Shown: in pieces, positions 3,107 to 19,473 of the stretch
How positions within the stretch are numbered: position 1 is the first letter of the stretch
Layout of the letters: every line of letters begins with the position of its first letter
UHGV virus genome: UHGV-0128318
DNA: 19,979 bases
From: a virus
Strand: one strand, 5' to 3'
Notes under the pieces: model-generated
Seen by the model: the letters and a program-made list of their open reading frames with translations, nothing else
The model's database searches: none
Told to the model about the DNA's origin: nothing
Translations under genes and position numbers: made by a program

Positions 3107-3151
3107 GTTCTCACGCTCTTGAATGGTGGTAGCCCAAGCGGGGGTGAGAAT
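3107..3151 (-). promoter_or_regulatory. Leader target elements upstream of the icd-like RBS: a second copy of the 10-mer gttctcacgc (3107-3116, identical to the RNA loop at 3277-3286) and its partial complement gtgagaa (3144-3150)
   Basis: Exact 10-nt direct repeat 170 bp apart plus a 7-nt inverted copy. This allows either an intramolecular hairpin in the mRNA leader or pairing of the upstream small-RNA loop with the leader. Confidence 0.45.
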
Positions 3152-3234
3152 ACCGGCAAACGAAGAAACCGGCCTGACCGAAGTCAGCCCCGCCTGAGCC
3201 ACCATAAATCGGATATGCGCAGGTATATACACAC

Positions 3235-3256
3235 AAAAAAACACGCTGGCGCGTGT
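3235..3256 (-). terminator. Intrinsic terminator on the minus strand (acacgc-gcca-gcgtgt followed by T7), inside the leader of the antirepressor operon
   Basis: 6-bp GC-rich stem, 4-nt loop, immediate run of 7 T on the minus strand. Confidence 0.6.
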
Positions 3257-3309
3257 TGTGCGCTTCGTTTATCCGGGTTCTCACGCCCGGCTGCGGAATT
3301 TGCCGCAGC
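3235..3309 (-). ncRNA. Candidate c4/CA-type small regulatory RNA of about 75 nt: two stem-loops (3291-3308 ctgcgg/ccgcag; 3273-3290 ccggg/cccgg with loop cgugagaa) followed by the terminator
   Basis: Promoter-like TTGACG-18-TAAAGT on the minus strand (3345-3316) placed about 7 nt before the first stem-loop; loop sequence repeated and complemented in the downstream leader. Matches the known architecture of P1 c4 / P4 CI / N15 CA immunity RNAs. Confidence 0.45.
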
Positions 3310-3315
3310 GGAGTA

Positions 3316-3345
3316 ACTTTACCGTTAAAACGACGCACACGTCAA
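3316..3345 (-). promoter_or_regulatory. Putative sigma70 promoter of the anti-immunity operon (TTGACG-18-TAAAGT)
   Basis: Hexamer match and spacing read from the sequence; no other support. Confidence 0.3.
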
Positions 3346-7600: not shown

Positions 7601-8664
7601 ACATCGTTGAATTTCGATAAGATTTCATAGCCAGTCCGCAGGCCGGTATTCCCTTTTCCTTCTGTAGCTGATTTCCGGTCATTATCCAGTGCGCAGGTGA
7701 TTTTTGCCGCCGGGTACATGTTTACCAGTTGTTCCACAACATGAACCATGTTGTTAGCGGATACAGCGACAACCACAGCGTCAAAGCGTTTATCTTTTTT
7801 CGTGGCAAGCCAGATGGATGCACCAGTAGCAAAACCTTCTGTAACAGCGATGTTTTGCGCCCCTTTCAGCTCACCGATAACAAAGCAGGCACCGACGAAA
7901 TCGCCGCTGGTTACGGCGCTGGTCTGGTATTTTCCACCTTGTTTGTCGATTCGCTGCCAACCAACAATACGACCATCGTAACGACCGTCCAGGTGAGCCA
8001 GAGGGATAGCCATATACGTGGTTGGCCCCCTGCTCCATTTTGCGCTGTCGTGACTGGTCACGCGACGCACATCACACGAATTAAAAACGTCACGAATACC
8101 TTTTTTAATCGCATATGGCCATGAGCCGTCTTCTGCAGGAGCATGTTCCCAAGCACTGTGGAATGCCAGCCATCCCAGCAAACGTTCATGGTCCATTTGG
8201 TTGTTTTTCAGGTCATTAATTCGTTTTTGTTCTTCACGGCGACGACGTGCTTCACGTTCTATTCTTGCCCGTTCTTCTTCCGGTTGTGCGACCACGGTCG
8301 CATTATTCCGTTGTTGCTCACGGCGATATTCAGAAAACAGGAAGGAGAAACCGCTCCATGAGCCAGCATCGCTGCCTTTATGGACGAAGTTAATGAACGG
8401 GTAATCAATCCCTTTGCTGTGTTCCAGTCGGGAGTAAATTTCTACGCGTCCTTTGAGGCTCTTCTCGAGAGCTTCTGGAGATGTTTTATTGTATGAAGAG
8501 TAACGCTCAACACCCCCGCGAGGGTTGAGTTGGATGTTGTCGGAACAGGCAGACCAGTTGATACCAGCCATCTGTGCCAGCTCGGTTAGTTCATCCCGTG
8601 CTGCTTCAATTAGCGAGAACGGATCGCTGCCAAAGCGATCCGCATAGAAATCGTTTAATGTCAT
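4675..8664 (-). CDS. repA: RepA-type multidomain replication protein (primase-helicase), 1329 aa, with a Walker A motif (GMGSGKST)
   Basis: Size and position (next to cB, transcribed away from cro) match N15 repA, which is about 1.3 kaa; NTP-binding motif seen. All + strand track ORFs between 5616 and 8404 are antisense artefacts of this gene. Confidence 0.9.
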   Translation of the reverse strand: MTLNDFYADRFGSDPFSLIEAARDELTELAQMAGINWSACSDNIQLNPRGGVERYSSYNKTSPEALEKSLKGRVEIYSRLEHSKGIDYPFINFVHKGSDAGSWSGFSFLFSEYRREQQRNNATVVAQPEEERARIEREARRRREEQKRINDLKNNQMDHERLLGWLAFHSAWEHAPAEDGSWPYAIKKGIRDVFNSCDVRRVTSHDSAKWSRGPTTYMAIPLAHLDGRYDGRIVGWQRIDKQGGKYQTSAVTSGDFVGACFVIGELKGAQNIAVTEGFATGASIWLATKKDKRFDAVVVAVSANNMVHVVEQLVNMYPAAKITCALDNDRKSATEGKGNTGLRTGYEILSKFNDVRCVYPTFEDDPQMECSDFNDLHKLRGLRETARQLFATANRLKTGTDLLSLTLNRLKTIKRDNRRTFAKELLRAVDIGMLTCPVPNSPSDLFNMFCIVLREMGLENIYRATVKDHIARRLNKKCRIAQAPRSFSERITDPNKRPQHITYKRFETSVMTDDVLKYVQSLQGIVIVRAGMGSGKSTGLLRPLMHSSERGISVAHRVSLIGGLWEMMTEGKGVKADILHYQDPGYQEMAPYASKLTICINSIVKNCWQPLMRQHDYFGFDEATQGLRAVLSGRAMENPVAVFNTLIDALARTEQHPIMVDADANDLLVDLAELAMKRREELGLPAWLQIHVIELPVDVRNRETGEPIRVFYTEKDRIMTEVVKAVSDGEKIMLATDSSTFAEDVTATLRMHFPGKKFLCVNQKNKPEPEVEAFTNQPKKMVKKYDGLIYSPSISSGVSIEQKHFDRHFGMFCGEVVPSDAVQMLRRDRTAKEFIIGFDKARAKRETDPQKIERAFAQALLATAGMNGELTDVVFDGDRISMGVANTDFTRMKIKAAAIEATARNDYASNMICIMHSDGYKVSPLATDYAANDIGKDLRKEARDIVWEQTLDLHLNTETPQESEREELLKKRALTLEEQAKLVRWDIENELKLPVEEGTLKFYFDGARDKVRRYETMLLDEVTARRYDREEAAINFTYAYRQAGQWQYFVVTAMTREQADDVFKTKFPGIIDHKVKATPTVEVGARGFYALKSATLRQYFIDCGINPETMTGEATQERLKFARDNLMTAERRDLLNNVLHIGGFMTPKGKPKVPEALFKNICDSLGLKTGKRRGRDGDKRPTLRFVEPESAAFMLDILAQRQKDGLTLKTRKAEKTAIEMDRDLDLNIYMDDKTRSTNEQVQNAPHSVISEALAVLPVVVPESWAMSALSGEELATMSSWSSASIAMTFASLYLTEFMDHLSSNELRRLREYITGNSPCSYEEQGAFYG
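4950..5010. other. Candidate internal replication origin element: AT-rich stretch (catatatatatt) with three GATC sites within about 50 bp, inside the 3' end of repA
   Basis: Seen in sequence; N15 ori is known to lie within the 3' part of repA. Confidence 0.3.
8049..8062. repeat. Family-2 palindrome cgtgactggtcacg inside the repA 5' coding region
   Basis: Perfect 6-bp arms around a 2-bp centre; same core as 3366-3385 and 14369-14382. Confidence 0.6.
8287..8302. repeat. SopB-type centromere-like palindrome tgcgacc-ac-ggtcgca (family 1), inside repA coding sequence
   Basis: 7-bp perfect arms; core GACCACGGTC resembles the F sopC binding site TGGGACCACGGTCCCA; four more copies in the window. 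Confidence 0.5.
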
Positions 8665-8718
8665 TTTTTAGCCATTCCATGCGAATTATGTTTTTTCGGG
8701 TTGAAAAAATCCGCAGGA

Positions 8719-8774
8719 GCAGCCACAATAAACGCATCTTGAATTGACGGAATCCGTCGCGTTGTTGTGGCTGC
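8719..8774. promoter_or_regulatory. Long imperfect inverted repeat (gcagccacaataaacgc ... gcgttgttgtggctgc) enclosing a small hairpin (gacgg-aat-ccgtc), in the repA 5' leader
   Basis: About 14 of 17 arm positions complementary; lies between the repA ATG (8664) and the cB stop (8910). Confidence 0.4.
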
Positions 8775-8787
8775 TTCCTGAAAAGGA

Positions 8788-8815
8788 CCCGAGTTTGCCG
8801 ACTCGGGTTTTTTTT
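8788..8815 (+). terminator. Strong intrinsic terminator on the + strand (cccgagt-ttgccg-actcggg then T8); in the minus orientation the same hairpin is followed by only ccuuuu
   Basis: 7-bp stem and 8 T read directly; there is no + strand gene upstream, so it may end an antisense or leader transcript, or act weakly and bidirectionally after cB. Confidence 0.5.
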
Positions 8816-8909
8816 CGTCTTTTTTCTGCTGCTGTAACCTGAGTCAACCCACAGAACATATGCCCTGCATTAAACCAGATTTACAGTAAACAATAAACCC
8901 CATATTAAG

Positions 8910-9506
8910 TCATCTACCCTCAACCATGAATGATTTGATCGTTCCGACTATTTGGTGAACAAATTCAAGATCGCTTTTCCTGAAGATGGCGCGTTGTGAG
9001 TTTGTTCCATCCAGATAGTAATTTTCATCATCAAAACGGGCCAGGCGCTGGATAGTGATATTTCCTGCAGTATCACGAACCAGAACATCCTCGCCGGGGA
9101 CCAGTTCCAGCGCAGAATCGACCAGGAGAAAATCGCCTGGCTGATAGTTTCCCTGCGTAAGATTGCTGATAGTTAACGCATACACAGTATTGCGCTGGCT
9201 GATGAATGGCAGGAATCGCTCAGTATTTGGAACCTGTCCCGGCTTCCACTCTTCATCCGGCCCACTTTCAGTTGTGCCAATAACAGGAATGCGATCAGGG
9301 TCATATTCTGTCCCATATAGCACCCAATGCACTGGCTTGCGTAAGCACTTAGCCAGGGCAATACCTATCTCCAGTGACGGCATTACGTCGCCACGTTCTA
9401 AGTTTTGGACGCCTGCTATAGAGATATCGACAGCCTCAGCAACTTCTCGCAACGTCAGCTTCATCTCTAAACGGCGTGCTTTCAGTCGTTCGCCTCGTGT
9501 TTTCAT
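8910..9506 (-). CDS. cB: Prophage repressor CB (lambda CI-like: N-terminal HTH, C-terminal S24/LexA-like domain), 198 aa
   Basis: HTH region LTLREVAEAVDISIAGVQNLERG at the N-terminus and a C-terminal domain of repressor size; divergent from cro across an operator region. Confidence 0.85.
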   Translation of the reverse strand: MKTRGERLKARRLEMKLTLREVAEAVDISIAGVQNLERGDVMPSLEIGIALAKCLRKPVHWVLYGTEYDPDRIPVIGTTESGPDEEWKPGQVPNTERFLPFISQRNTVYALTISNLTQGNYQPGDFLLVDSALELVPGEDVLVRDTAGNITIQRLARFDDENYYLDGTNSQRAIFRKSDLEFVHQIVGTIKSFMVEGR

Positions 9507-9528
9507 AGCTTAATCATAAATGATCTTC

Positions 9529-9544
9529 TTATAGCTGGCTATAA
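9529..9544. promoter_or_regulatory. Operator palindrome ttatagc-tg-gctataa (candidate CB/Cro operator 1)
   Basis: 16-bp inverted repeat in the cB-cro intergenic region; second copy 26 bp away. Confidence 0.6.
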
Positions 9545-9554
9545 AATTTATTTA

Positions 9555-9570
9555 TTATAGCTGGCTTTAA
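9555..9570. promoter_or_regulatory. Operator palindrome ttatagctggctttaa (candidate operator 2, one mismatch to operator 1)
   Basis: Near-identical direct copy of the 16-mer at 9529-9544. Confidence 0.6.
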
Positions 9571-9597
9571 TTGTTGTTTATTGTTTATAATAACAAC

Positions 9598-9819
9598 ATG
9601 AAACCAGAAGAACTTATTCGCCATTTTGGCAGTGTAGAAAAAGCAGCGGCAGGGGTAGGTGTAACACCCGGAGCTGTTTACCAATGGTTAACCGCTGGAG
9701 AGATTCCTTCATTGCGGCAAAGCGATATTGAAGTTCGTACTGCTTATAAGCTGAAGAGTGACTTTACAACTCGGCGGGTAAAGCAGTCGATTAAGGAGAG
9801 TCGTAAGCGTGGAGCTTGA
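9598..9819 (+). CDS. cro: Cro-like small HTH regulator, 73 aa (MKPEELIRHFGSVEKAAAGVGVTPGAVYQWL...)
   Basis: Divergent from cB; HTH motif; ATG at 9598 preferred over the track's TTG at 9571. A TATAAT hexamer sits at 9586-9591 only 6 nt upstream, so the mRNA may be leaderless. Confidence 0.7.
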   Translation: MKPEELIRHFGSVEKAAAGVGVTPGAVYQWLTAGEIPSLRQSDIEVRTAYKLKSDFTTRRVKQSIKESRKRGA

Positions 9820-10519
9820 GTATATACGCAGCTGCGTCTCTACGGCATTGGCTGATGTTCATTATCTCCAGCGTGGCATTCTGGAGGTCCAGCTTGAGCA
9901 GATGCGTCTCGGTAGATCAGGACGGTTTAACAATAAACCAGTCCGGTCAATCAGTGTGGGGGATGATAACTCATACGAAGTGTCCGTTTCTGCTGAGCCG
10001 GTTAGATTCCATCAGGGGAAAACATTTAAACAATCATCAATGTTGCTCACTGATATTGATTTTCAGAGCGCCAGCTGGCGCAGGGCTATTGGTCAGTTGA
10101 ATAACGAGGAATCAGCCTGGCTTTATTATTGCTACGGATGCAAGCCTGATTACAACAATGATGTGATTGTTTGTCAGTGGTTATGGCTTGATTTTCTGGT
10201 TGCTCATTCGGGGGGCGGCTTTAAAAAAATGAAGGCCTCCACGAAAAAAGCTATGCGAAAATTGATTTATTACGCGGCACAACAGGTTAAATCAGAACTT
10301 ACGTGTGCTGAGGCAGTTGATGAGAGAGAACAGGACAGGCATCTGAGTTTTCTACTGAATATATCTATTGATAGCTGGAGACAAGATTATAAAGAACGCT
10401 GGCTTTTAATTAAGTCGCGATGTCTGAGCTTAAATCGAACTGCATTATTAAATGCGGCGGAGAAGCGCAGTGAAATCATCAAACGCCATCGGGCAGGAAG
10501 TGCCATTCTGCCTTTGTAA
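9809..10519 (+). CDS. Putative late-gene antiterminator (Q-like by position), 236 aa with CxxC (CYGC)
   Basis: Immediately downstream of and overlapping cro, as Q is in N15/lambdoid phages; the family assignment is positional only. Confidence 0.45.
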   Translation: MELEYIRSCVSTALADVHYLQRGILEVQLEQMRLGRSGRFNNKPVRSISVGDDNSYEVSVSAEPVRFHQGKTFKQSSMLLTDIDFQSASWRRAIGQLNNEESAWLYYCYGCKPDYNNDVIVCQWLWLDFLVAHSGGGFKKMKASTKKAMRKLIYYAAQQVKSELTCAEAVDEREQDRHLSFLLNISIDSWRQDYKERWLLIKSRCLSLNRTALLNAAEKRSEIIKRHRAGSAILPL

Positions 10520-10772
10520 ACAAGTTATGTTCAGGAAACCGTCGAAGCCAGAATTAAGGTATTCGGGGGTAAGAAATGAATATGTTATCTGGTGTCCAAC
10601 TTGTGGTTATAGGACACGACCAGATAGTAATAAGCAGTCTGTAATTGCCGATTGGTATTTATCAAATCAGCCAGGTAATAAGCATATAGAAAATCTTTGG
10701 ATTAAGCGTTACTTGGAAATCAGAGAGGGTGCGACCGTGGTCGCACAAGAAAATGAAAATAACGCCATTTAA
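10470..10772 (+). CDS. Zinc-ribbon small protein, possibly Lar-family (restriction alleviation-like): PFCLC ... WCPTCGY ... SVIADWY
   Basis: GTG at 10470 with GGAG at 7-nt spacing, overlapping the Q-like 3' end by 50 nt; an alternative ATG at 10527 loses the first Cys pair. Confidence 0.35.
   Translation: MKSSNAIGQEVPFCLCKQVMFRKPSKPELRYSGVRNEYVIWCPTCGYRTRPDSNKQSVIADWYLSNQPGNKHIENLWIKRYLEIREGATVVAQENENNAI
10729..10746. repeat. SopB-type centromere-like palindrome gtgcgacc-gt-ggtcgcac (family 1), within coding sequence
   Basis: 8-bp perfect arms. Confidence 0.5.
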
Positions 10773-10782
10773 GCAGGGGCCG

Positions 10783-10956
10783 ATGACGCATGATGAAGCA
10801 GAGCGTCTTTCAGATACTTATCGGCGGCGTGGTAAGAAAGTTCTGGTTGTTCGTTCTGATTTTTTAGGTGATGGATATTGTGTTTATGTTCATTTACCTG
10901 AATCAGAAAGAACGCCAAAACCATCCAGAACATATCAACAGAAAATTTGGGTATAG
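10783..10956 (+). CDS. Hypothetical small protein, about 57 aa (MTHDEAERLSDTYRRRGKKVLVVRSDFLGDGYCVYVHLPE...)
   Basis: ATG preceded by AGGGG; the track ORF 10729..10956 extends upstream across the palindrome and the preceding gene. Confidence 0.3.
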   Translation: MTHDEAERLSDTYRRRGKKVLVVRSDFLGDGYCVYVHLPESERTPKPSRTYQQKIWV

Positions 10957-10979
10957 ATAAACGTTGAGGAGAATTATTC

Positions 10980-11579
10980 GTGACTAATCAGATTATTTAC
11001 GACAGGAAACGGTCTGATGTAATGATTGACCTTGAAACAATGGGTACTAACACATGTGCTCCAATTGTTTCTATCGGGGCAGTGTTTTTTTCTCCAGAAA
11101 GTGAGGAATTAGGTCCTACTTTTTATGTGCCAGTGAATCTCAGAAGCTCGATGTTGAATGGTGGTATCGCCGATGGTGATACCATTTTATGGTGGTTGAA
11201 ACAGAGCAAGGAAGCCAGAGCCGCTATTTGTACTAATGATGCCCTTGATATTAATGATGCACTTTTTGAATTATCACACTTTATTACTTGCCATGCATGT
11301 AATTTAAAAAAGTTGAAAGTATGGGGAAATGGAGCAACGTTCGATAATGTAATTTTACGCGGTGCTTATGAGCGCGTTGGCTTAGCCTGTCCGTGGGAAT
11401 ATTTTAATGATCAGGATGTTCGAACAATCGTTAATCTTGGTCAGTTTATTGGTTTTAATCCTAAAAAAGATATGCCATTTGATGGCGAACGACACAATGC
11501 CTTGGCTGATGCTATTCATCAGGCTAAATATGTATCCGCAATTTTCTCCCGTCTTGTAAAAGGGCAAGGAGAATCGTAA
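10980..11579 (+). CDS. DEDDh-type 3'-5' exonuclease (DnaQ/RNase T-like fold), 199 aa
   Basis: Motifs MIDLETMG (Exo I, D-x-E) and HNALADA (Exo III, H-x4-D); GTG start with GAGGAG at 8 nt. Confidence 0.7.
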   Translation: MTNQIIYDRKRSDVMIDLETMGTNTCAPIVSIGAVFFSPESEELGPTFYVPVNLRSSMLNGGIADGDTILWWLKQSKEARAAICTNDALDINDALFELSHFITCHACNLKKLKVWGNGATFDNVILRGAYERVGLACPWEYFNDQDVRTIVNLGQFIGFNPKKDMPFDGERHNALADAIHQAKYVSAIFSRLVKGQGES

Positions 11580-11998
11580 TGGCAAAGGCTTTTACACCAG
11601 AACAGAGGGAAGAACTGAATAAACAAATTGTGGAACTCGTGCGCCTGAATGGACGAGGAACGGTTAGGCAACTTGCGGATGAAACTGGTATTAGCCGGTG
11701 TGCTGTTAGTCGTTTATCAAGAGAGCTTGCTGCCAGTGGTGATTTGTATATCTCTGGCTCCGGGATATTTCTGTCTGCACAAGCACGCAAGGACTGGCAA
11801 AACGCCCGTAAAAAACTATCAAGAGTAAAGCCGAAGAAATCGGTAGTGGTTGATCCAGACCTTATCTGGTCATTACCTGACGGAGAAATACGTCGTTACG
11901 ACAGGCGCTTGAACATGATTTGTCACGATTGCCGGAAAAGTGAAGTTATGCAGCGTGTGCTGGCTTTTTATCAGGGAAATTTACAGGAGGTGGCGTAG
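11579..11998 (+). CDS. Putative HTH DNA-binding protein, 139 aa
   Basis: Helix-turn-helix-like segment TVRQLADETGISRCAVSRLSREL; start overlaps the upstream stop. Confidence 0.5.
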   Translation: MAKAFTPEQREELNKQIVELVRLNGRGTVRQLADETGISRCAVSRLSRELAASGDLYISGSGIFLSAQARKDWQNARKKLSRVKPKKSVVVDPDLIWSLPDGEIRRYDRRLNMICHDCRKSEVMQRVLAFYQGNLQEVA

Positions 11999-12288
11999 TG
12001 AATATCGACACCACGATAACGATCGATACGGCCCTAAATATCGGTCTGGCACTTCTCGGTTGGTTTTACATCATGTTCAGTGCGGGGAAGTGGGCGGCCT
12101 CTGTTTTTCTAAAGCAGTGGGGAAAGCACCGCAAACAGGAAAGACGCCAGAAAGTGTTAGAGGCGTTCTATGACGCATTTGAACTTAGCCGCATTGAGCC
12201 AGGCACAACAGCCAAGATAGCGACAAAAGGCGACCTGATGATAGTGATGTTCCGACAGGAGAGAGCAGAGAAAGGGGAATCAGCATGA
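11998..12288 (+). CDS. Small membrane protein, 96 aa (hydrophobic segment ALNIGLALLGWFYIMF)
   Basis: GTG start after GGAGGTGG; one predicted TM segment. Confidence 0.4.
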   Translation: MNIDTTITIDTALNIGLALLGWFYIMFSAGKWAASVFLKQWGKHRKQERRQKVLEAFYDAFELSRIEPGTTAKIATKGDLMIVMFRQERAEKGESA

Positions 12289-12974
12289 AATTTTCCAAAT
12301 TTTCTGAGTTGGTGAATCGTATTTTGTCCAACAACCACAGCCATCGTCGCGATATGGATGTAACAATCGTTATTCATTCGCCTGGCAGCATTGGTTCAAC
12401 ACCCTCAGTTGAGGTTCAGTCAATTCACGCTGGTTTTGATTGGGATTCCGGGAAAGTGCTGATTTTCCCAGCACAGCCACTGACCACGCTAACACCAGAA
12501 CAGATTACTGATATTACTGATAGTGTGCGCAAAGGTCAGTCCTGGCACGCATATCAGGAATACAAGAAGCATAAAGAGCAGTTGGAAAAATTATCGATTG
12601 AACTTGATACCGCAAAACAGCGCATTGCAGAGCTGGAGAGCAATCGCGCGGCGCTGGCGGCGGAGCCTGTAGCGTGGCGATATCGCTACGTGAAAAAAGG
12701 CGTTACGGACTCTCAGGGGGAGCCGTGGGTTGGTGACTGGAAATATGTACCGACAACAGAGGATTGCAACGACAGGCCGAGCTATGAGATTCAGGCCTTA
12801 TTCACTGCCCCGCCAGTCCCGGTGACATCAGAAGGACTGGTTAAAGCCGTGCGTTTCTATGAACAAGTTAAGCGTGAAAATCCGCCAGTCGAAACCGGAG
12901 CATGGAAAGACGCGATTGACTGGGTGCTCAAAGAGGCCTGCCAGGTTGTAAACACTGGCATCAAAGGAGAATGA
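12285..12974 (+). CDS. Hypothetical protein, 229 aa, with a central coiled-coil (KEQLEKLSIELDTAKQRIAELESNRAALAA)
   Basis: ORF with overlapping start/stop junctions in the operon; no recognisable domain. Confidence 0.5.
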   Translation: MKFSKFSELVNRILSNNHSHRRDMDVTIVIHSPGSIGSTPSVEVQSIHAGFDWDSGKVLIFPAQPLTTLTPEQITDITDSVRKGQSWHAYQEYKKHKEQLEKLSIELDTAKQRIAELESNRAALAAEPVAWRYRYVKKGVTDSQGEPWVGDWKYVPTTEDCNDRPSYEIQALFTAPPVPVTSEGLVKAVRFYEQVKRENPPVETGAWKDAIDWVLKEACQVVNTGIKGE

Positions 12975-12975
12975 T

Positions 12976-13185
12976 ATGGCTATTGCCGCAAGTTACACCA
13001 TGCATCTCTATTGTGACTGCCGTCAGTGCACGGAAGGTGTATATCCAGTGCCAGACTTCGGTGAGTATATAGGTACGTCATGGGCTGGCTGTGCAAAAGA
13101 GGCGCGCAAGGATGGCTGGCGAATAAGCAAAGACAAAACGCGTGCTTTTGCGCCAGGGCATAAAGTTTTGAGGATTAACAAATGA
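12976..13185 (+). CDS. Hypothetical small Cys-containing protein, 69 aa
   Basis: Tightly packed within the operon; contains CDCRQC. Confidence 0.4.
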   Translation: MAIAASYTMHLYCDCRQCTEGVYPVPDFGEYIGTSWAGCAKEARKDGWRISKDKTRAFAPGHKVLRINK

Positions 13186-13577
13186 CCACTATTACCAAAG
13201 AGCGACTGCTGACAATCAAGCAGTGGCGCGAAACATACGGACCGGGTAGCAACGTTGTACTGCCAGCAGAAGAAGCGGAAGAACTGGCACGAATTGCGCT
13301 GGCATCGCTGGAAGCAGATCCAGTTAAACGAGTTAACTCAGATCAGATGCGCCGAGTCTGCTTAGAAGCTAATCGCCATTTAGATAAATATGACGCGATG
13401 GCGAAAGAGGTAAATAAGTTGCTTGGACGCATCGCCCCGCCAGCGCCGGTAGTGCCGGAAGAAATCAGTACGACCCACACAATGCTGCCCGCCATGAGTG
13501 ATCAGTTGATGGCGTTCGGTTATGTGAAGGGGTGGAATGCCTGCCGTGCCGCTATGCTTCAGGGAAAAGGAGAGTGA
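13182..13577 (+). CDS. Hypothetical protein, 131 aa (MTTITKERLL...)
   Basis: ATGA overlap with the upstream gene; shares its first five residues with the next gene. Confidence 0.5.
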   Translation: MTTITKERLLTIKQWRETYGPGSNVVLPAEEAEELARIALASLEADPVKRVNSDQMRRVCLEANRHLDKYDAMAKEVNKLLGRIAPPAPVVPEEISTTHTMLPAMSDQLMAFGYVKGWNACRAAMLQGKGE

Positions 13578-13578
13578 T

Positions 13579-14031
13579 ATGACCACTATAACCGATAAGA
13601 AACAGTATCCAGGCGAGCAATATCTTAATGAGCTGATCACCAACATAGAGTTTGCTGCAAGGGCACCAGTTGAAGTCGTGAGAGCGATGGCAGCAGAGCT
13701 ACAGAAGCGGCGCGAAGCTGATAGTGCAGAACCTGTAAGCCAAACTTACAAGTTAACTTTTGAGCAATGGCTGGAACAGCAGCACGGCAAAATTGATGTT
13801 GATTGCGGCTGTGTGAGCACTGAAATGCTTCTGCACTGGATGCGTGTGGCGTATGAGGCTGGCAACTCTCCGGTAACTCCGGATGGTCATGTTCAGTTTT
13901 CTGTTTCACTTCCTGCAGCGTTTGGTGGAGATAAATATTTTATTGATGGTGTATTTCAACCTTTGAGATATGAGCGTGACTGTGAAAGGGCGGTTGTGGC
14001 CGCTGGCGGTGTAGTTAATTGGGTTAAGTAA
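13579..14031 (+). CDS. Hypothetical protein, 150 aa (MTTITDKKQY...)
   Basis: ATG one nt after the upstream stop, RBS GGAGAG; the track start at 13537 is an extension. Confidence 0.5.
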   Translation: MTTITDKKQYPGEQYLNELITNIEFAARAPVEVVRAMAAELQKRREADSAEPVSQTYKLTFEQWLEQQHGKIDVDCGCVSTEMLLHWMRVAYEAGNSPVTPDGHVQFSVSLPAAFGGDKYFIDGVFQPLRYERDCERAVVAAGGVVNWVK

Positions 14032-14046
14032 TTTTCAGGAGGATTT

Positions 14047-14373
14047 ATGGCGCTGACACCGGCAGAACGGCAAAGGAGACGCAGGGAACGGTTGAAGAAG
14101 GAAGGCACATCAAGACGGGACTGGATTCTAGAACCTGACGAGTTACGTATGTTGGGGGAAATTTGTGTATTGCGTAGACCAGGGCGAGTTCCATATTCGG
14201 AGAACGAAGTCATTGGTTTGCTGATCAGGAAAAACTATAAGGAGCTGCAGAAGCAGCTATCTACTACTTGCCCGCGATGTGGTCAAAAAATGCCTGTTTC
14301 AGAATGCATTTTTGATGGCGAAGGGTCATGCCACCTTACAACCACGAGGCTGAAACTTGCGCTCAAAGCGTGA
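14047..14373 (+). CDS. Small basic DNA-binding-like protein with a C-terminal Cys cluster (TPAERQRRRRERLKKEG ... CPRCG ... C), 108 aa
   Basis: ORF with RBS AGGAGG; N-terminal Arg-rich stretch resembles a ribbon-helix-helix or basic DNA-binding region. Confidence 0.45.
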   Translation: MALTPAERQRRRRERLKKEGTSRRDWILEPDELRMLGEICVLRRPGRVPYSENEVIGLLIRKNYKELQKQLSTTCPRCGQKMPVSECIFDGEGSCHLTTTRLKLALKA

Positions 14374-14382
14374 CTGGTCACG
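14369..14382. repeat. Family-2 palindrome cgtgactggtcacg spanning the stop codon of the upstream gene and immediately before the next RBS
   Basis: Perfect 6-bp arms around a 2-bp centre. Confidence 0.6.
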
Positions 14383-14391
14383 GAGGGATAA

Positions 14392-14634
14392 ATGGATAAA
14401 AAGGCATTGCTTTTTGAAATGATACGAAAACGGAGCGAAAAGAGCTTTTCTGATGGTGGTGATGGGTTTGTTTTCGCTTCGATGCTTGCTTTTGATGTTG
14501 GGTTAAATAGCAGAATTGTTAAAAGGATGCTTGATTCTGCTGTCCGTACTGGACTTCTTGAGAAAGTTGATCGTGGCATAGGGAGAGAGCATAAGTATCG
14601 GGCCACACAGCAGTTTACGCAGTTAATTCATTGA
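14392..14634 (+). CDS. Hypothetical small protein, 80 aa
   Basis: ATG with GGAGGG RBS. Confidence 0.45.
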   Translation: MDKKALLFEMIRKRSEKSFSDGGDGFVFASMLAFDVGLNSRIVKRMLDSAVRTGLLEKVDRGIGREHKYRATQQFTQLIH

Positions 14635-14662
14635 AAATTGACCGTAAAGTTTGAGTTTTACC

Positions 14663-14678
14663 CTGTAATTTTATACAG
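14663..14678. promoter_or_regulatory. LexA (SOS) box CTGT-aattttat-ACAG overlapping a candidate promoter (TTGAGT-17-TACAGT)
   Basis: Matches the CTGT-N8-ACAG consensus with an AT-rich spacer; the only such site found in the window. Confidence 0.55.
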
Positions 14679-14716
14679 TACAAACAACCTTTTTTAGTTA
14701 AATGGTATGAGATTTA

Positions 14717-14920
14717 ATGTCTGAAGCAGCCGTATCAACTCTTGAACAACTCGATTCAAATTTAAGAGATATTGACGCCATTCTGGATCTGGTTAGCGTC
14801 ACCCTGGCTTCTCCAGAAGCCAGCCTACATATTGGTGAGGTTTCACGACTCATCAACATGTCGCGAGAGATTGCCCAGCATTGTCAGAAAACTATCGCTG
14901 TTGAGCGTTCACATCATTGA
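14717..14920 (+). CDS. Small SOS-controlled protein, 67 aa; candidate LexA-regulated antirepressor (AntC/Tum-like by regulation and position)
   Basis: First ORF downstream of the LexA box; N15 is known to have a LexA-controlled small antirepressor. No sequence-level identification was possible. Confidence 0.4.
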   Translation: MSEAAVSTLEQLDSNLRDIDAILDLVSVTLASPEASLHIGEVSRLINMSREIAQHCQKTIAVERSHH

Positions 14921-14962
14921 TGCACACCCCGCCCTTCTGGACGGGGTAGTAAAAGAGTCTAA

Positions 14963-15250
14963 TTAATAAACAGCGCGAATATCGATGGCTGCGCCGCAGG
15001 CATGAGCATATTTAGCCAAAGTTTTCATACTTGCCCCTAAAGGATTGCTTTCCAGGCGGCTGATGGCTGACGGTCGTAACCCCATTCGTTCAGCCAGAGC
15101 TGATTTCGTTAAACCTGCTCTTTCCCTCATTTCGTATAACATTTCGACCATCTCCAGCTCTTTGTCGGCCTCTTCATATCCTTTGACGGCTTCTGGAGTG
15201 TTGAGGAGTTTTTCTTTTACTTCGTTAAACGGGATGCCTTTCGCTTTCAT
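14963..15250 (-). CDS. HTH (XRE-family) antitoxin, HigA-like, 95 aa
   Basis: HTH segment LTKSALAERMGLRPSAISRLES; translationally coupled (ATGA) to the upstream toxin gene. Confidence 0.75.
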   Translation of the reverse strand: MKAKGIPFNEVKEKLLNTPEAVKGYEEADKELEMVEMLYEMRERAGLTKSALAERMGLRPSAISRLESNPLGASMKTLAKYAHACGAAIDIRAVY

Positions 15251-15561
15251 CAGTTCATCTCCTTCAGGCGAGTTCTGGCGATTTCGATAGCCTTCACCGG
15301 TGTTTTCTGTGTCTTTTTTACAAATGCATGCAATAGATAAATTTCGTTACCAGTCGCGTAGGCGTACAGCGTTCTTGCGATGTTTTTATCCCCTACTCGT
15401 AGTTCAAAAAGCCCTCCACCTATTACACGGCTATGGGGCATCTTCAGTTTGTTGCCTTCTTTCTCCAGTCGCTCAATTAATCTGGCCATGCGACCTCGCA
15501 AATCATCTGGTAGTTCAAGCAGTTCATCCAGTGCTGCAGGGTGGGTTATCACGTTAAACAT
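15250..15561 (-). CDS. Gp49-like (RelE/HigB-fold) toxin, about 103 aa (MFNVITHPAALDEL...LLHAFVKKTQKTP...)
   Basis: Hallmark LLHAFVKKTQKTP motif of the Gp49-like family; ATG at 15561 with GGAGG at about 8 nt; the track's longer start lacks an RBS. Confidence 0.8.
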   Translation of the reverse strand: MFNVITHPAALDELLELPDDLRGRMARLIERLEKEGNKLKMPHSRVIGGGLFELRVGDKNIARTLYAYATGNEIYLLHAFVKKTQKTPVKAIEIARTRLKEMN

Positions 15562-15726
15562 ATTATAGCCTCCACATCCATAAAATACACCAAAACAAGA
15601 AAACAACGCAAATTAAAAATTTCATTAAAAAGCGAAAAATAACACTGGATGTGTTCGTTTGGCAGAGTTACAGTTCGTGTCATTGAGGGGCAATAACCCA
15701 CTAACTATATGAATTTGGAGGATATT

Positions 15727-15948
15727 ATGAATTATCAAGGTAACGAAAAAATGCGCGGCGACGTTGCGGAGATAGCTAACGAACTGTATGAGTTGTGGCA
15801 GAAGGTTGAACGTTTCGAAAAGGAATATGGTTTCAACAGTACCAACCTAACAGACCGACTGGCTGGTCGCTTAGTTGGGACTATGGGGCCAAAACTGGCT
15901 GAGTTGAACAGCTTTATGGCTGATGTTGATTTCCAGTTTCAAGATTGA
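15727..15948 (+). CDS. Hypothetical small protein, 73 aa
   Basis: ATG at 15727 with GGAGG at 8 nt. Confidence 0.45.
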   Translation: MNYQGNEKMRGDVAEIANELYELWQKVERFEKEYGFNSTNLTDRLAGRLVGTMGPKLAELNSFMADVDFQFQD

Positions 15949-15961
15949 TTAGAGAGGCGTT

Positions 15962-16189
15962 ATGAATATTAATGAAATTCGTGGAAATATGACTGAAGCG
16001 GCCCTGAGTGTGGAATGTGTTATGCGTGGATACCCACACATTTCCCTGAAAGAGTTAAGCGAAGCCTGTTTTTTGAGTCAAGCTGCCGTTGAATTTATCA
16101 TCGAACAGATGATCTGTTTTGGGGTTGCAAAGCGTAGCGGATCTGGTCGATATTCTTTGACCGATGAATATAAGCAGGCAACTTTCTAA
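15962..16189 (+). CDS. Hypothetical small protein, 75 aa, possibly winged-helix
   Basis: ORF with RBS GAGAGG. Confidence 0.45.
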   Translation: MNINEIRGNMTEAALSVECVMRGYPHISLKELSEACFLSQAAVEFIIEQMICFGVAKRSGSGRYSLTDEYKQATF

Positions 16190-16193
16190 AAGC

Positions 16194-16213
16194 TGTGCGA
16201 CCACGGTCGCACA
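16194..16213. repeat. SopB-type centromere-like palindrome tgtgcgacc-ac-ggtcgcaca (family 1), intergenic
   Basis: 9-bp perfect arms, 5 nt after the stop of the preceding gene. Confidence 0.5.
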
Positions 16214-16298
16214 GCACAAAAACGAAAAAGCTTGGCAAAATGACGGTTTTTAGTTATTGTTTTGTTAAGTTGGGTTTTTTGTACCCAACAGCCAACAA

Positions 16299-16321
16299 GC
16301 CGCCTTTATGGCGGTTTTTTT
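16299..16321 (+). terminator. Intrinsic terminator (gccgcc-tttat-ggcgg then T7)
   Basis: GC stem with a U-tract; preceded by a second hairpin gttgggt-ttttttgt-acccaac. Confidence 0.7.
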
Positions 16322-16338
16322 GTGCCTGAAAAGTGGGC

Positions 16339-16364
16339 GCAGGACAAGTTGCAGCTTGTCCTGC
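16339..16364. promoter_or_regulatory. Perfect 10-bp inverted repeat gcaggacaag-ttgcag-cttgtcctgc upstream of the methyltransferase gene
   Basis: Seen directly; no U-tract follows, so more likely an operator or RNA structure than a terminator. Confidence 0.4.
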
Positions 16365-16408
16365 GGTCAACCCATGCCAGAGCTATAGGCTGAACCTAAA
16401 GCCCACCC

Positions 16409-16422
16409 GCGATGCGCATCGC
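16409..16422. promoter_or_regulatory. Perfect 14-bp palindrome gcgatgcgcatcgc overlapping the first in-frame ATG of the methyltransferase ORF
   Basis: Seen directly. Confidence 0.4.
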
Positions 16423-17533
16423 CGGGTTAGCTTACCCAGGCAAAAAAATAATAGCTATGTTCAAAACCACTAATATTCATGGCGCACAACTCGTTTGCGC
16501 AGATTCTCTGCAATTTATCAAAACCATCCCTGATAACTCGGTCAATTTGATTGCAACAGACCCACCATACTTCGGCGTAAAGGCTAACGCATGGGATAAC
16601 CAGTGGGATAGCGATGCTGACTTTTTGGGGTGGATTGACGAATTTTTGGCAGAATTTTGGCGGATATTGGCCCCTAATGGCAGCCTGTATATGTTTACCG
16701 GCTCTCGCCTTGCGTCAAAAATTGAATTATTAACTCGCGACCGTTTCAATGTTCTGAACCATATCATTTGGGCTAAACCCAGTGGTATGTGGCGCGGTTG
16801 TCATAAAGAAAGTTTAAGGGCTTATTTTCCTGCTACTGAAAGAATATTATTTGCAGAGCATTACGGCGCGTCAGGTTATGCTAAAGGTCAGTCAGGTTAT
16901 GCTTCAAAATGTGCAGATTTAAGAAAAAATATTTTTTCTCCACTAATTGATGCTTTTTCGCTGGCTCGCCGTCAGTTAGATATATCAGCCGCAGACATTA
17001 ATTCAGCGACAGGAAAGCAGATGTGTTCACACTGGTTTTCTTATTCGCAGTGGCGGCTTCCATCATTAATTGATTTTAATAAACTATGCGAATTATTTCG
17101 CAGGAAGGCAGATTCACTCGGTGTCCCGTGTCCATATCCTTTTAATGTTGATTATTCAGAACATGAAAAGCGTTATAGCGATCTGAAATTGCATTATGAG
17201 GAAGTAAAGAAGCAGTATGATGATTTGAAGGCTCAGTATGAAAATTTACGCCGTCCATTTCATGTTACTGCTGATGTACCTTATACCGATGTATGGGAGT
17301 TTCCTCCTGTGCAATATTATCCTGGCAAGCACCCATGTGAAAAACCTGCAGCGATGATGGAACATATTATAAAGAGTAGTTCACGCCCCGGAGATATCGT
17401 TGCCGATTTCTTTATGGGATCAGGCTCAACTATTAAAGCTGCGCTGAAGTTAGGACGTCAGGCAATAGGTATTGAGATTGAGGGCGAACGTTATCTTCAG
17501 ACAGTTGATGAAGTGAAAAAGTTATTTGAGTAA
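16412..17533 (+). CDS. Orphan DNA methyltransferase of the N6-adenine/N4-cytosine amino-MTase family (beta-class: DPPY motif N-terminal, FxGxG motif C-terminal)
   Basis: Motifs IATDPPYF and DFFMGSGST; no adjacent restriction endonuclease gene. The true start may be the ATG at 16457 (MFKTTNIHG...). Confidence 0.85.
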   Translation: MRIAGLAYPGKKIIAMFKTTNIHGAQLVCADSLQFIKTIPDNSVNLIATDPPYFGVKANAWDNQWDSDADFLGWIDEFLAEFWRILAPNGSLYMFTGSRLASKIELLTRDRFNVLNHIIWAKPSGMWRGCHKESLRAYFPATERILFAEHYGASGYAKGQSGYASKCADLRKNIFSPLIDAFSLARRQLDISAADINSATGKQMCSHWFSYSQWRLPSLIDFNKLCELFRRKADSLGVPCPYPFNVDYSEHEKRYSDLKLHYEEVKKQYDDLKAQYENLRRPFHVTADVPYTDVWEFPPVQYYPGKHPCEKPAAMMEHIIKSSSRPGDIVADFFMGSGSTIKAALKLGRQAIGIEIEGERYLQTVDEVKKLFE

Positions 17534-17628
17534 CTGGAGAATATATTCCCCTGCCGTTTTTGGTAGGGGTTATTTTCGCCATATAGTTTCCAAGCCGAAA
17601 CCTCAGCAACTATTGCGAGGTAAGAGAT

Positions 17629-17901
17629 ATGAAGATGGATGAACGATACAGCAGTGCATCTTATGGTAGCGCCGGTCTTGCTGCGTTCTTTGCCAGCCTG
17701 TCATTGCAGGATTGGGGCTTCATTATCGGTGTCGCGTTCAGCATTATCCTCGGTGTGCTTACATACCGGCTCAATAAACGCGAGCAGATGAAGCGCACGA
17801 AGATATTGCAGGAGATATTGGATAAAACTAATACCAATAATCTTTCTGCTACAGCGATGGTTATTGGAGAGCTGGGGAAGAGAGCACCGAAGGAAATATG
17901 A
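17629..17901 (+). CDS. Class II holin (pinholin-like, two TM segments), 90 aa
   Basis: Two hydrophobic helices followed by a charged C-terminus; immediately upstream of and overlapping the endolysin start. Confidence 0.7.
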
Positions 17902-18398
17902 TGCAGTCATCATTACGCAAAGCTGTTACAGCTGCTATTGGTGGCGGGGCTATTGCCATAGCGTCTATGCTCATCACTGGCCCAAGTGGTAACGATGGTC
18001 TGGAAGGTGTCAGTTACATACCATACAAAGATATTGTTGGCGTATGGACTGTATGTTACGGACACACTGGAAAAGACATCATGCTAGGTAAAACGTATAC
18101 CGAAGCAGAATGCAAAGCTCTCCTGAATAAAGACCTTGCCACTGTCGCCAGACAAATTAACCCGTACATCAAAGTCGATATACCGGAAACAACGCGCGGC
18201 GCTCTTTACTCGTTCGTTTACAACGTGGGCGCTGGTAATTTCAGAACATCGACGCTTCTTCGCAAAATAAACCAGGGCGATATCAAAGGCGCATGTGATC
18301 AGCTACGTCGCTGGATATCTGCTGGCGGTAAGCAATGGAAAGGCCTGATGACTCGTCGTGAGATTGAGCGTGAAGTCTGTTTGTGGGGTCAACAATGA
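17898..18398 (+). CDS. SAR endolysin (phage lysozyme, T4-lysozyme/GH24-like, with N-terminal signal-anchor-release domain)
   Basis: Gly/Ala-rich N-terminal TM ([20 protein letters not shown]) and catalytic region [14 protein letters not shown]; ATGA overlap with the holin. Confidence 0.85.
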
Positions 18399-18862
18399 GC
18401 AGAGTAACCGCAATTATCTCCGCACTGGTTATCTGCATCATCGTCTGCCTGTCGTGGGCTGTTAATCATTACCGTGATAACGCCATCGCCTACAAAGAAC
18501 AGCGTGATAAAAAAGTCAGTGAGCTGAAGCAGGCGACCGCCACCATCGCTGACATGCAGCAGCGTCAGCGTGATGTTGCTGCGCTCGATGCAAAATACAC
18601 GAAGGAGTTGGCTGATGCGAAAGCTGAAAATGATGCTCTTCGGCGCAAGCTTGATAATGGTGGTCGGGTGCTCGTCAAAGGAAAATGCTCTGTGCCATCC
18701 TCAGCCGAAACCTCCAGCGCCTCCGGCATGGGCAATGATGCCACCGTCGAACTCTCTCCAGTTGCTGGACGAAACGTTCTCGGTATCCGGGACGGAATCA
18801 TCAGAGACCAGACAGCACTGAGAACGCTTCAGGAATACATCAAGACGCAATGCCCGAATTAA
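18395..18862 (+). CDS. Rz-like i-spanin (N-terminal TM, coiled-coil periplasmic domain)
   Basis: ATG overlaps the endolysin stop (ATGA); TM segment [14 protein letters not shown]; contains the embedded Rz1 frame. Confidence 0.75.
18615..18821 (+). CDS. Rz1-like o-spanin lipoprotein embedded in the +1 frame of Rz (lipobox ...IMVVGC, Pro-rich mature part)
   Basis: ATG at 18615 with GAAGGAG at 7 nt; signal peptide with lipobox Cys; [10 protein letters not shown] typical of Rz1. Confidence 0.7.
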
Positions 18863-18903
18863 TCCCTCTGTATCAAAAACGAACTCAATTTGTTGGATAG
18901 TGA

Positions 18904-19215
18904 ATGAAAATTTATATTGCCGGGCCAATGACTGGATATGAGAACTTTAATCGTGACGCCTTTAATAAAGAGGCAGATCGTTTGTCACGACATGGTCACT
19001 CTGTCTTGAATCCAGCCACTTTGCCTAATGGTCTGACACAACGTGAATACATGGATATTTGCTTTGCAATGCTTCGTTGTGCTGATGCTATTTTGATGCT
19101 TCCTGGCTGGAAAGCGTCTGCTGGAGCAACTGCTGAGTATCATTACGCATACAAGATGGAGATGCCGGTATTCACTACGCTGAATTACCCGCCAGCTTGT
19201 TCCTCTGTAGCATAA
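18904..19215 (+). CDS. DUF4406-like protein (nucleoside 2-deoxyribosyltransferase-like fold), 103 aa
   Basis: MKIYIAGPMTG ... NPA ... CDAILMLPGWKASAGA pattern recalled for this family. Confidence 0.55.
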   Translation: MKIYIAGPMTGYENFNRDAFNKEADRLSRHGHSVLNPATLPNGLTQREYMDICFAMLRCADAILMLPGWKASAGATAEYHYAYKMEMPVFTTLNYPPACSSVA

Positions 19216-19233
19216 AAATCTCTTTGTTTCTCG

Positions 19234-19253
19234 TGTGCGACCGTGGTCGCACA
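19234..19253. repeat. SopB-type centromere-like palindrome tgtgcgacc-gt-ggtcgcaca (family 1)
   Basis: 9-bp perfect arms. Confidence 0.5.
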
Positions 19254-19453
19254 TTAAATACCGCGCTGCATCGTCGCCGTATTTCCGCATTAACCATGAC
19301 CGTAGCCCGACGGGGAACTCCTCTGCGCGAGTGTGCGGAAATAATCAAAAACGATGCACACCGGGTTTTTACCGCGCTAATGATTCGCGGGTTTGTCCCT
19401 CATGCTCGCCAGTCCTGTGCGAGGGTGGAAGAAACAGGGCATGTATTCAGGAG

Positions 19454-19473
19454 CGTGCGACCGTGGTCGCACG
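19454..19473. repeat. SopB-type centromere-like palindrome cgtgcgacc-gt-ggtcgcacg (family 1)
   Basis: 9-bp perfect arms; 200 bp downstream of the previous copy. Confidence 0.5.

Follow-up and report, generated by a model that had tools for sequence, protein, structure and literature searches.

What is the function of five near-identical palindromes that are scattered over one arm of a phage-plasmid, in and between genes of unrelated function? The window analyzed here, a stretch of 19,979 nucleotides from virus genome UHGV-0128318, represents one arm (telN-repA-immunity-Q-late-lysis) of an N15-like telomere phage-plasmid with lambda-like head and tail genes. This arm is approximately 98% identical to PhiR46_1 (97.9%) and approximately 76% identical to N15 and to phiKO2. 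The best matches to the window among phages and complete E. coli genomes have 97-98.5% identity at 88-92% coverage, and N15-like phage-plasmids are present in 15 of 5,426 complete E. coli genomes. A sequence-only reading had likened the palindromes to the SopB binding site of the F plasmid and proposed that they are dispersed centromere sites in the manner of N15.

All five sites possess the arms TGCGACC / GGTCGCA around a 2-bp free center. The pattern TGCGACCNNGGTCGCA has five exact matches in the window, at 8287-8302, 10730-10745, 16196-16211, 19236-19251, and 19456-19471, as the sequence-only reading had described, and none in 200 dinucleotide-preserving shuffles of the window (mean 0.00, maximum 0). 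Chance is thus excluded as their origin. Searching the window for the 14-bp core with up to 2 mismatches revealed no site beyond these five, and only one isolated half-site is present (15489), with approximately 1.9 expected by chance. From site 1 to site 5 the perfect palindromes are 16, 18, 24, 20, and 20 bp in length with central dinucleotides AC, GT, AC, GT, and GT, and successive sites are spaced 2443, 5466, 3040, and 220 bp apart, start to start. The coordinates given earlier hold for sites 1, 2, 4, and 5, whereas site 3 exceeds its stated length by 4 bp. An Rfam search assigned no family to any of the five sites.

Two of the palindromes were said to reside within coding sequence, and this is the case for sites 1 and 2. 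Site 1, TGCGACCACGGTCGCA (8287-8302), occupies codons 121-126 of the primase/replicase gene repA (4675-8664, minus strand; peptide NATVVAQ). Site 2, an 18-bp palindrome (10729-10746), lies 211 bp 3' of the stop codon of the Q antiterminator gene (9809-10519, plus strand; Pfam Phage_antiter_Q, E = 9.6e-84), in codons 93-98 of a 106-codon ORF (10452-10772, plus strand) that encodes a Lar-like zinc ribbon and is the equivalent of N15 'orf QD1'. The earlier description of this ORF as a Lar-like gene containing the site is upheld in part: the site is within the ORF, but the match to Pfam Lar_restr_allev is sub-threshold (21.1 bits, where the cut-off is 28.6), and the Lar-like domain comprises residues 18-68, leaving site 2 outside it in the C-terminal tail. 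Site 3, a 24-bp palindrome (16192-16215), ends 20 bp upstream of the -35 element of the late promoter. Sites 4 and 5, both 20-bp palindromes, form the left (19234-19253) and right (CGTGCGACCGTGGTCGCACG, 19454-19473) members of a doublet. Site 4 follows a DUF4406 gene (18904-19215), from which its core is 21 bp and its extended palindrome 18 bp distant, and site 5 precedes an ATG at 19496, 24 bp downstream of its core and 22 bp from the extended palindrome.

The arrangement of these sites reflects that of the N15 centromere. In the N15 genome record, IR1-IR4 have 7-bp arms identical to those of the window and a 2-bp variable center, and the same arms are found in the IR1-4 oligonucleotides used for the functional N15 centromere (PMC7205306, Table 4). 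N15 SopB forms foci on the IR1-4 sites, whereas a hybrid with the F DNA-binding domain does not (PMC7205306). The first base of IR1 is A in the N15 record; site 1 of the window, in contrast, is a perfect palindrome. Four positions are common to N15 and the window, namely the 5' part of repA, the region following Q, the region upstream of late promoter p52, and the region past the lysis block, such that sites 1, 2, and 3 are the orthologs of IR1, IR2, and IR3, and the doublet occupies the position of IR4. The equivalents of IR2 and IR3 flank the interval from Q to the late promoter. Site 3 aligns with N15 IR3 (41125-41140) and with a phiKO2 site at 45384-45401, and the -35 element begins 21 bp past IR3 in N15. 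The Klebsiella phage phiKO2 likewise bears four identical palindromes, annotated 'putative plasmid partitioning sites', at the same four positions; the third is just upstream of its annotated late promoter and the fourth is 17 bp past the homolog of the DUF4406 gene. Each position holds a single copy in phiKO2, as opposed to the doublet in the window. The dispersed N15-style arrangement proposed at the outset is therefore borne out. The accompanying suggestion that five sites represent a high density is not, as N15 has four sites in 12.1 kb and the window, with its doubled IR4 position, five in 11.2 kb, while the N15-like relatives possess 4 to 6 and PY54 possesses eight. Five sites per replicon are ordinary for N15-like relatives, and in the whole PhiR46_1 replicon the five sites are the full set.

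Conservation of the palindromes was assessed in 51 N15-like IMG/VR loci that were found through the Q protein, independently of the motif. The post-Q site (Q start +921/+930) is present in all 51, and the repA-position site (Q start -1522) in all 48 loci that cover that position, with a total of 4 to 6 sites per relative. Absence from related genomes had been set beforehand as evidence against a centromere role; the palindromes are present in every relative found in this manner. In alignments of these relatives, 13 of 16 columns are invariant at site 1 (45 of 120 in the flanks) and 14 of 16 at site 2 (62 of 120 in the flanks), and the variable columns upstream of site 2 recur at every third base, the pattern of a coding region. 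Among the 26 and 22 distinct sequences of these two sites inside ORFs the arms never change, while flanking codon third positions vary and the central dinucleotide (AC, GT, AT, TC, or GC) changes the encoded residue (T, V, M, S, or A). This combination argues, at the level of the alignments, that selection on the palindromes acts on the DNA and not on the protein. An exact-pattern scan of IMG/VR yielded 120 stretches, 84 of which are at least 43% alignable to N15, phiKO2, or PhiR46_1; all multi-site stretches are among these 84, and 25 stretches without similarity hold single matches only.

The resemblance to the F plasmid is close, as had been noted, and stops short of identity. F sopC, TGGGACCACGGTCCCA, is a 16-bp SopB-binding inverted repeat that has the GACC-NN-GGTC core in common with the window, and the homologous SopB proteins are approximately 50% identical. 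It is one base per half-site removed from the window's sites (PMC3597684; pO157 sopC), since arm position 3 is G in F (TGGGACC / GGTCCCA) and C in all five window sites; the same one-base difference has been described between the N15 and F sites (PMC2910045). Furthermore, F sopC consists of tandem 43-bp repeats next to sopB, a register also seen in pO157, whereas the sites of the window are dispersed. Identity with F plasmid sopC is ruled out by both the arms and the spacings, and F SopB is not functional with N15 sites (PMC7205306).

The sopAB genes were expected outside the window, and a tblastn search of the window indeed revealed no SopA or SopB coding sequence. The type of the cognate SopB, on which a possible preference for another motif had been made to depend, was consequently taken from relatives 97-98% identical to the window. 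The closest complete relatives, namely PhiR46_1, the E. coli plasmid pZ1323HEC0355-3, and IMG/VR contigs sharing Q, all encode SopAB with the N15-type DRNI helix. SopB proteins of phages with TGCGACC sites, including these two relatives, have the helix-turn-helix sequence AE(G/N)(I/V)DRNI, whereas PY54 SpyB and the pO157/F-type SopB have AENISRKI, paired with TGGGACC sites. The pO157 sopAB-sopC locus stood for the F-type system in this comparison. A SopB-based scan of IMG/VR, with peptide patterns that proved too specific, did not recover the SopB of an F-type telomere phage contig (L179), and PY54 was therefore used for the covariation test. PY54, a Yersinia telomere phage with the SpyAB system, has dispersed palindromes in homologous locations (within repA, at the 3' terminus of its Lar-like ORF44, ahead of the late methylase gene, and past DUF4406). 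Its eight copies, some of them in the structural-gene arm, bear F-type arms. Telomere phages and F-like plasmids together thus present a natural specificity switch, with C at arm position 3 accompanying DRN and G accompanying SRK. This covariation agrees with published work that traced specificity to residues 179-200 of N15 SopB and to residues next to Arg190 (PMC2910045). PhiR46_1 SopB is 74% identical to N15 SopB, and the ELSAR motif of F SopB Arg219 (cf. PMC3597684) is conserved. Within the 22-residue specificity segment, the SopB proteins of the closest relatives carry 5 differences from N15 SopB. That specificity is probably unchanged in spite of these differences is suggested by the unchanged sites, an argument that is partly circular.

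Arm identity, synteny, conservation at the DNA level, and covariation with the SopB helix together suggest, with a probability of roughly 0.9, that these palindromes make up all the parS-type centromere sites of an N15-like linear plasmid-prophage. A dimer of SopB, a type Ia ParB protein whose gene would lie with sopA at the other prophage end, is predicted to occupy each 16-bp palindrome, one helix-turn-helix contacting each TGCGACC arm. Bound SopB would nucleate a spreading partition complex, which in turn would stimulate the nucleoid-bound SopA ATPase and move sister prophages apart before division. N15 IR2 and IR3, with SopAB and Q, aid late transcription, and by analogy sites 2 and 3 may have this second role. 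For the phage of the window we infer from sequence and its relatives that SopB binds the sites, that they act in partition, and that sites 2 and 3 affect late expression. Specific binding by SopB, stabilization by single sites with SopAB, and incompatibility of cloned sites are known for N15 only (PMC7205306), and were reportedly described by Ravin and Lane in 1999 and Grigoriev and Lobocka in 2001. The dispersed arrangement is well studied in N15, and the known partition picture is unchanged; what is new here is an E. coli N15 relative with one extra copy compared with N15. The main value is for annotation, as E. coli N15-like phage-plasmids currently have no SopB centromere annotation and the 16-bp palindromes can be labelled as such. 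Among the telomere phages compared, site number ranges from 4 to 8 with four positions constant, and these comparative data should be useful for compatible linear vectors and ParB/parS labelling tools. Chromosomal parS and Spo0J-ParB offer a more distant parallel, with a 16-bp palindrome, an HTH ParB dimer, and several copies over a domain (PMC3597684), but the sequence is of another class (TGTTNCACGTGAAACA) and the protein is a chromosomal ParB as opposed to a type Ia plasmid SopB.

The extra copy raises the question of how centromere sites are gained. The 204-bp interval between sites 4 and 5 is mostly a lambdoid mosaic module (19258-19450) that is not part of the centromere and is 85-95% identical to a near-cos segment in 434, mEp460, 4C10, 2B8, and more than 250 other lambdoid records. 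Ten IMG/VR loci with a nearly identical Q share the 220-bp doublet, and the relative pZ1323HEC0355-3 retains site 4 as its single copy there. Three lineages carry three unrelated inserts at the IR4 position, each between two full sites (core intervals of 204, 165, and 139 bp), and the genes downstream of the IR4-position site differ between lineages. The gene downstream of site 5, compared with N15 gp59 and phiKO2 gp59 in order to identify the ancestral copy, shows no homology to either. Some Klebsiella relatives reach 5-6 sites by doubling, either of the third position as a 47-bp tandem or of the fourth (155 bp). Site 5 is a second copy at the IR4 position and not a new position, and mosaic recombination would have placed the lambdoid module between two copies, generating the fifth site. 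That the palindromes are also preferred mosaic junctions, and thereby the birthplace of new centromere copies, is a tentative idea that we consider unlikely, although the bracketed inserts, the lineage-specific cargo, and a stem-preserving variant in phage 2B8 fit it. If true, an IR4-class site would be a centromere, a terminator hairpin, and a recombination hotspot at once, and recombination of this kind could adjust the number of copies (4-8).

Conservation of stem pairing rather than of protein recognition would be expected if the palindromes were RNA or DNA hairpins, such as intrinsic terminators. Site 5 passes a plus-strand terminator scan (8-bp stem, 4-nt loop, tail GTATCTTTGT), and N15 IR4, which has the CG...CG extension of site 5, is annotated as a putative rho-independent terminator. 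The lambdoid non-plasmid phage 2B8 carries TGCAACCGTGGTTGCA at the homolog of site 5, at the end of the module, where a symmetric G>A/C>T change keeps the stem next to a T-rich tail. However, a GC-rich stem-loop followed directly by a T-run is found at site 5 only: sites 1-4 have no T-run on the plus strand, the scan reports no terminator at site 3, and sites 1 and 2 are inside ORFs. Hairpins would also permit compensatory changes in the arms, yet it is the loop-forming center that varies while the arms are invariant, and the base at arm position 3 changes together with the SopB helix. A hairpin function is thus a very improbable explanation for the set, but may contribute to the conservation of site 5.

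Operators of another dimeric phage regulator (CB, Cro, or a small HTH protein), forming a regulon unrelated to partition, would account for the proximity of sites 2 and 3 to Q and the late promoter, and several HTH genes are present in the window. In N15, however, the CB operators have their annotations at other places (34056-34094 and 34729-34793) and lack the palindrome, N15 sites are bound by SopB (PMC7205306), and in N15-like and PY54-like phages alike the sequence of the sites changes with the type of SopB helix, which leaves this explanation scarcely credible. CB/Cro operators, a replication-origin element, and telomerase sites were each rejected as candidates, the N15 operators and telRL having other locations and sequences. 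Recombination or insertion scars, or a restriction-modification or methylase-related motif, in either case without a segregation role, are the least probable: the bracketed inserts and variable downstream genes at the IR4 position, and two DNA methylase genes in genomes of the window's type, speak for them, but sites 1 and 2 are in conserved collinear genes that are not mosaic junctions, and every relative places them at a constant distance from Q. A restriction-modification target of 16 bp that occurs five times in 46 kb is, moreover, implausible.

The late promoter adjoining site 3, a homolog of N15 p52, was located by promoter scan at 16232-16260 on the plus strand (TTGGCA, 17-nt spacer, TATTGT), and its -35 element is invariant in N15 (annotated at 41162-41167) and phiKO2. 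The N15 and phiKO2 records each annotate one terminator downstream of the late promoter. In the window, a terminator scan places an intrinsic terminator past the promoter (16297-16327, plus strand), which is retained when the region is aligned with both phages and is presumably the target of Q antitermination.

Comparative analysis establishes the five palindromes of the window as putative N15-type SopB sites that are conserved as DNA and, in relatives, coupled to an N15-type SopB. An exact search with TGCGACCNNGGTCGCA gave exactly five matches in the window, starting at 8287, 10730, 16196, 19236 and 19456, and none in 200 dinucleotide-preserving shuffles of it, bearing out the five dispersed, near-identical palindromes claimed by the sequence-only reading. 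No extra sites with up to two mismatches in the 14-bp core were found in the window, and the single isolated half-site there is within chance. Numbered from left to right, sites 1-5 are perfect palindromes over 16, 18, 24, 20 and 20 bp. Site 1 (8287-8302) occupies codons 121-126 of repA (peptide NATVVAQ), and site 2 (10730-10745) occupies codons 93-98 (peptide GATVVAQ) of a 106-codon zinc-ribbon ORF that overlaps the end of the antiterminator gene Q and whose Lar domain match in Pfam, over amino acids 18-68, is sub-threshold (21.1 versus 28.6 bits). The reading frame falls on the palindrome in the same register at sites 1 and 2, so RepA and the Lar-like ORF have the peptide ATVVAQ in common; this register is probably simply the one in which the sequence is least disruptive. 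Site 3 (start 16196) ends 20 bp 5' of TTGGCA-17-TATTGT, a homolog of the N15 late promoter with conserved terminator hairpins downstream. Site 4 (start 19236) lies 21 bp past the DUF4406 gene, and site 5 (start 19456), which matches a terminator pattern, lies 24 bp 5' of the next ATG.

The window aligns over 90% of its length, at ~98% identity, with the linear phage-plasmid PhiR46_1, whose whole 46.3-kb replicon carries exactly the five sites of the window and no others. In N15 the same palindrome stands at 33480 within repA, at 35931 past Q, at 41125, 21 bp before the annotated -35 element of the late promoter, and at 45562 past gene 58, where it is annotated as a putative terminator. Four copies occupy the same places in phiKO2 and are annotated "putative plasmid partitioning site". 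Oligonucleotides of IR1-IR4, the SopB-binding centromere sites of N15, have the same arms as the window sites, and N15 SopB forms foci on an IR1-IR4 array, which a hybrid bearing the F DNA-binding domain fails to bind (PMC7205306). The F sopC site is TGGGACCACGGTCCCA (PMC3597684); each half-site differs in one nucleotide between the N15 and F centromeres, and specificity is carried by residues 179-200 of N15 SopB (PMC2910045).

Conservation was assessed without the motif by gathering relatives through the Q protein, which yielded 53 loci, 51 of them N15-like, and seeking the palindrome only afterwards. A site was present at -1522 +/- 8 from the Q start in all 48 loci covering the repA position, and at +921 or +930 in 51 of 51 N15-like loci. 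The third site falls at +4.4 to +7.4 kb. Most loci have a fourth, single or as a doublet, between about +6.9 and +10.6 kb; in several, no fourth site was seen within the stretch examined. At +8267 from the Q start, the IMG/VR sequence L130 (IMGVR_UViG_2571042870_000006) has a decayed fourth site, TGCGATCGTGGTCGCT, with two mismatches, indicating that the IR4-class copy can be lost. Thirteen of the 16 columns of site 1 are invariant, as against 45 of 120 flanking columns (26 distinct sequences), and for site 2 the figures are 14 of 16 and 62 of 120 (22 distinct sequences). The variable columns are the central dinucleotide and, in site 1, the outermost base; variation at the centre of site 2 alters the encoded residue (T, V, M, S or A), and the flanks vary at every third position. 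The constraint thus acts on the arms as DNA rather than on the peptide. When IMG/VR was scanned for the exact pattern, 120 stretches came up; 84 are N15/phiKO2-like, among them all those with multiple sites, and 25 unrelated ones had a single match each.

Comparison of site motif with partition protein among relatives, which the sequence-only reading had put forward as a test that could refute it, came out computationally in its favor, the arm type tracking the SopB helix. In all N15-like phages examined, the arm TGCGACC accompanies the SopB specificity segment AE(G/N)(I/V)DRNI, whereas the arm TGGGACC accompanies AENISRKI in SpyB of PY54 and in the F-type SopB of pO157. The SopB of PhiR46_1 shares 74% identity with that of N15 and ~50% with the F type. 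In pO157 the sites form a tandem array with 43-bp spacing, whereas the F-type palindromes of the Yersinia telomere phage PY54, TGGGACCNNGGTCCCA, with the arm TGGGACC, are dispersed and number eight (508, 6566, 26513, 31240, 34394, 39870, 40976 and 44409); its IMG/VR relative L179 has four (7524, 7780, 16239 and 17533). Several PY54-type sites lie at places homologous to those of N15-type sites, namely in repA, in the tail of ORF44, which is Lar-like, ahead of the late methylase and past DUF4406. Position has thus been kept while specificity changed together with the helix. Together with the N15 and phiKO2 identities and the conservation of the DNA, this covariation supports the proposal that the palindromes are predicted SopB centromere sites of the dispersed, N15-like kind. 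The SopB helix of the E. coli relative pZ1323HEC0355-3, AENIDRNI, is a third variant paired with the same site.

The density of sites had also been considered unusually high, but loci spanning all positions carry 4-6, and five is within the normal range of the family. Mosaic recombination at a site marking a module boundary best accounts for the fifth site. Sites 4 and 5 are separated by 204 bp, most of which belong to a mosaic module that lies near cos in over 250 records of lambdoid phages, and the 220-bp doublet recurs in E. coli-type relatives. The close relative pZ1323HEC0355-3 (NZ_CP148365.1) has four sites (11211, 13654, 18033 and 21073); it keeps site 4, has neither site 5 nor the genes that follow, and its lambdoid module continues toward the terminase genes. 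Other lineages have IR4-position doublets around two different unrelated inserts, with copies 181 and 155 bp apart, so that in three lineages an unrelated insert is bracketed by two complete putative SopB sites (window 19236-19471; compared sequences L154, L176, L121, L165, L168 and L035), at core-to-core intervals of 204, 165 and 139 bp. The 165-bp insert contains an inverted repeat, CATTGACATGAGCG. Past the IR4-class site, the genes of different lineages are unrelated to one another. In Klebsiella types (L162-L174), a 47-bp tandem doublet occupies the IR3 position, upstream of the late promoter.

In the integrating lambdoid phage 2B8 (LR595859), the position corresponding to site 5 holds TGCAACCGTGGTTGCA (2688-2703). 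Relative to the SopB site this sequence has a symmetric G>A/C>T pair of changes, which leaves the hairpin intact, and it is followed by a T-rich tail, suggesting a terminator role. No palindrome occurs at this position in the lambdoids 434, 4C10 and mEp460. This stem-preserving variant and the repeated occurrence of duplicate sites on either side of unrelated inserts make up the only mildly novel thread.

By analogy with N15 and other type Ia ParABS systems, SopB dimers would bind each palindrome, spread and form partition complexes, and nucleoid-bound SopA would move the copies apart. Ravin, Rech and Lane reportedly found in 2008 (J Bacteriol 190:3538) that late transcription in N15 is enhanced by the equivalents of sites 2 and 3 acting with SopAB and Q, and sites 2 and 3 may likewise raise it here. 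As anticipated, sopAB is absent from the window; in PhiR46_1 it adjoins telR, at the opposite end of the linear prophage.

The window runs from telN (truncated at its start) through an antirepressor region with a C4-type antisense RNA, repA, cB, cro and Q to the early genes, RelE/ParE, the late promoter, methylase, holin/lysozyme/Rz and DUF4406. Its repA-Q arm is ~76% identical to those of N15, phiKO2 and Klebsiella telomere phages, and a close relative occurs as a plasmid, mostly of ~46 kb, in 15 of 5,426 complete E. coli genomes. Rfam matches above gathering score to C4 antisense RNA (3122-3209, 82 bits), isrK (3236-3309) and the c4 a1/b1 targets (3270-3322), all on the minus strand, form a block (3122-3322) corresponding to P1/P7/N15-type antisense control of the antirepressor operon, 5' of icd/ant-like ORFs. 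Between sites 2 and 3, minus-strand ORFs of 95 and 118 amino acids (14963-15606) are counterparts of the HTH antitoxin/RelE-ParE toxin pair that is annotated in N15 (genes 48 and 49), phiKO2 and the E. coli relatives, and form a second plasmid-maintenance module. YDC107_1 is ~97% identical to the window, and in its record (CP025712.1) the telN-to-repA arm is duplicated in inverted orientation (34650-46299), with protelomerase, BRO and repA fragments each present twice in opposite orientation; the duplication probably arose when the assembly read through the hairpin telomere, and it gives rise to a spurious sixth palindrome at 45081.
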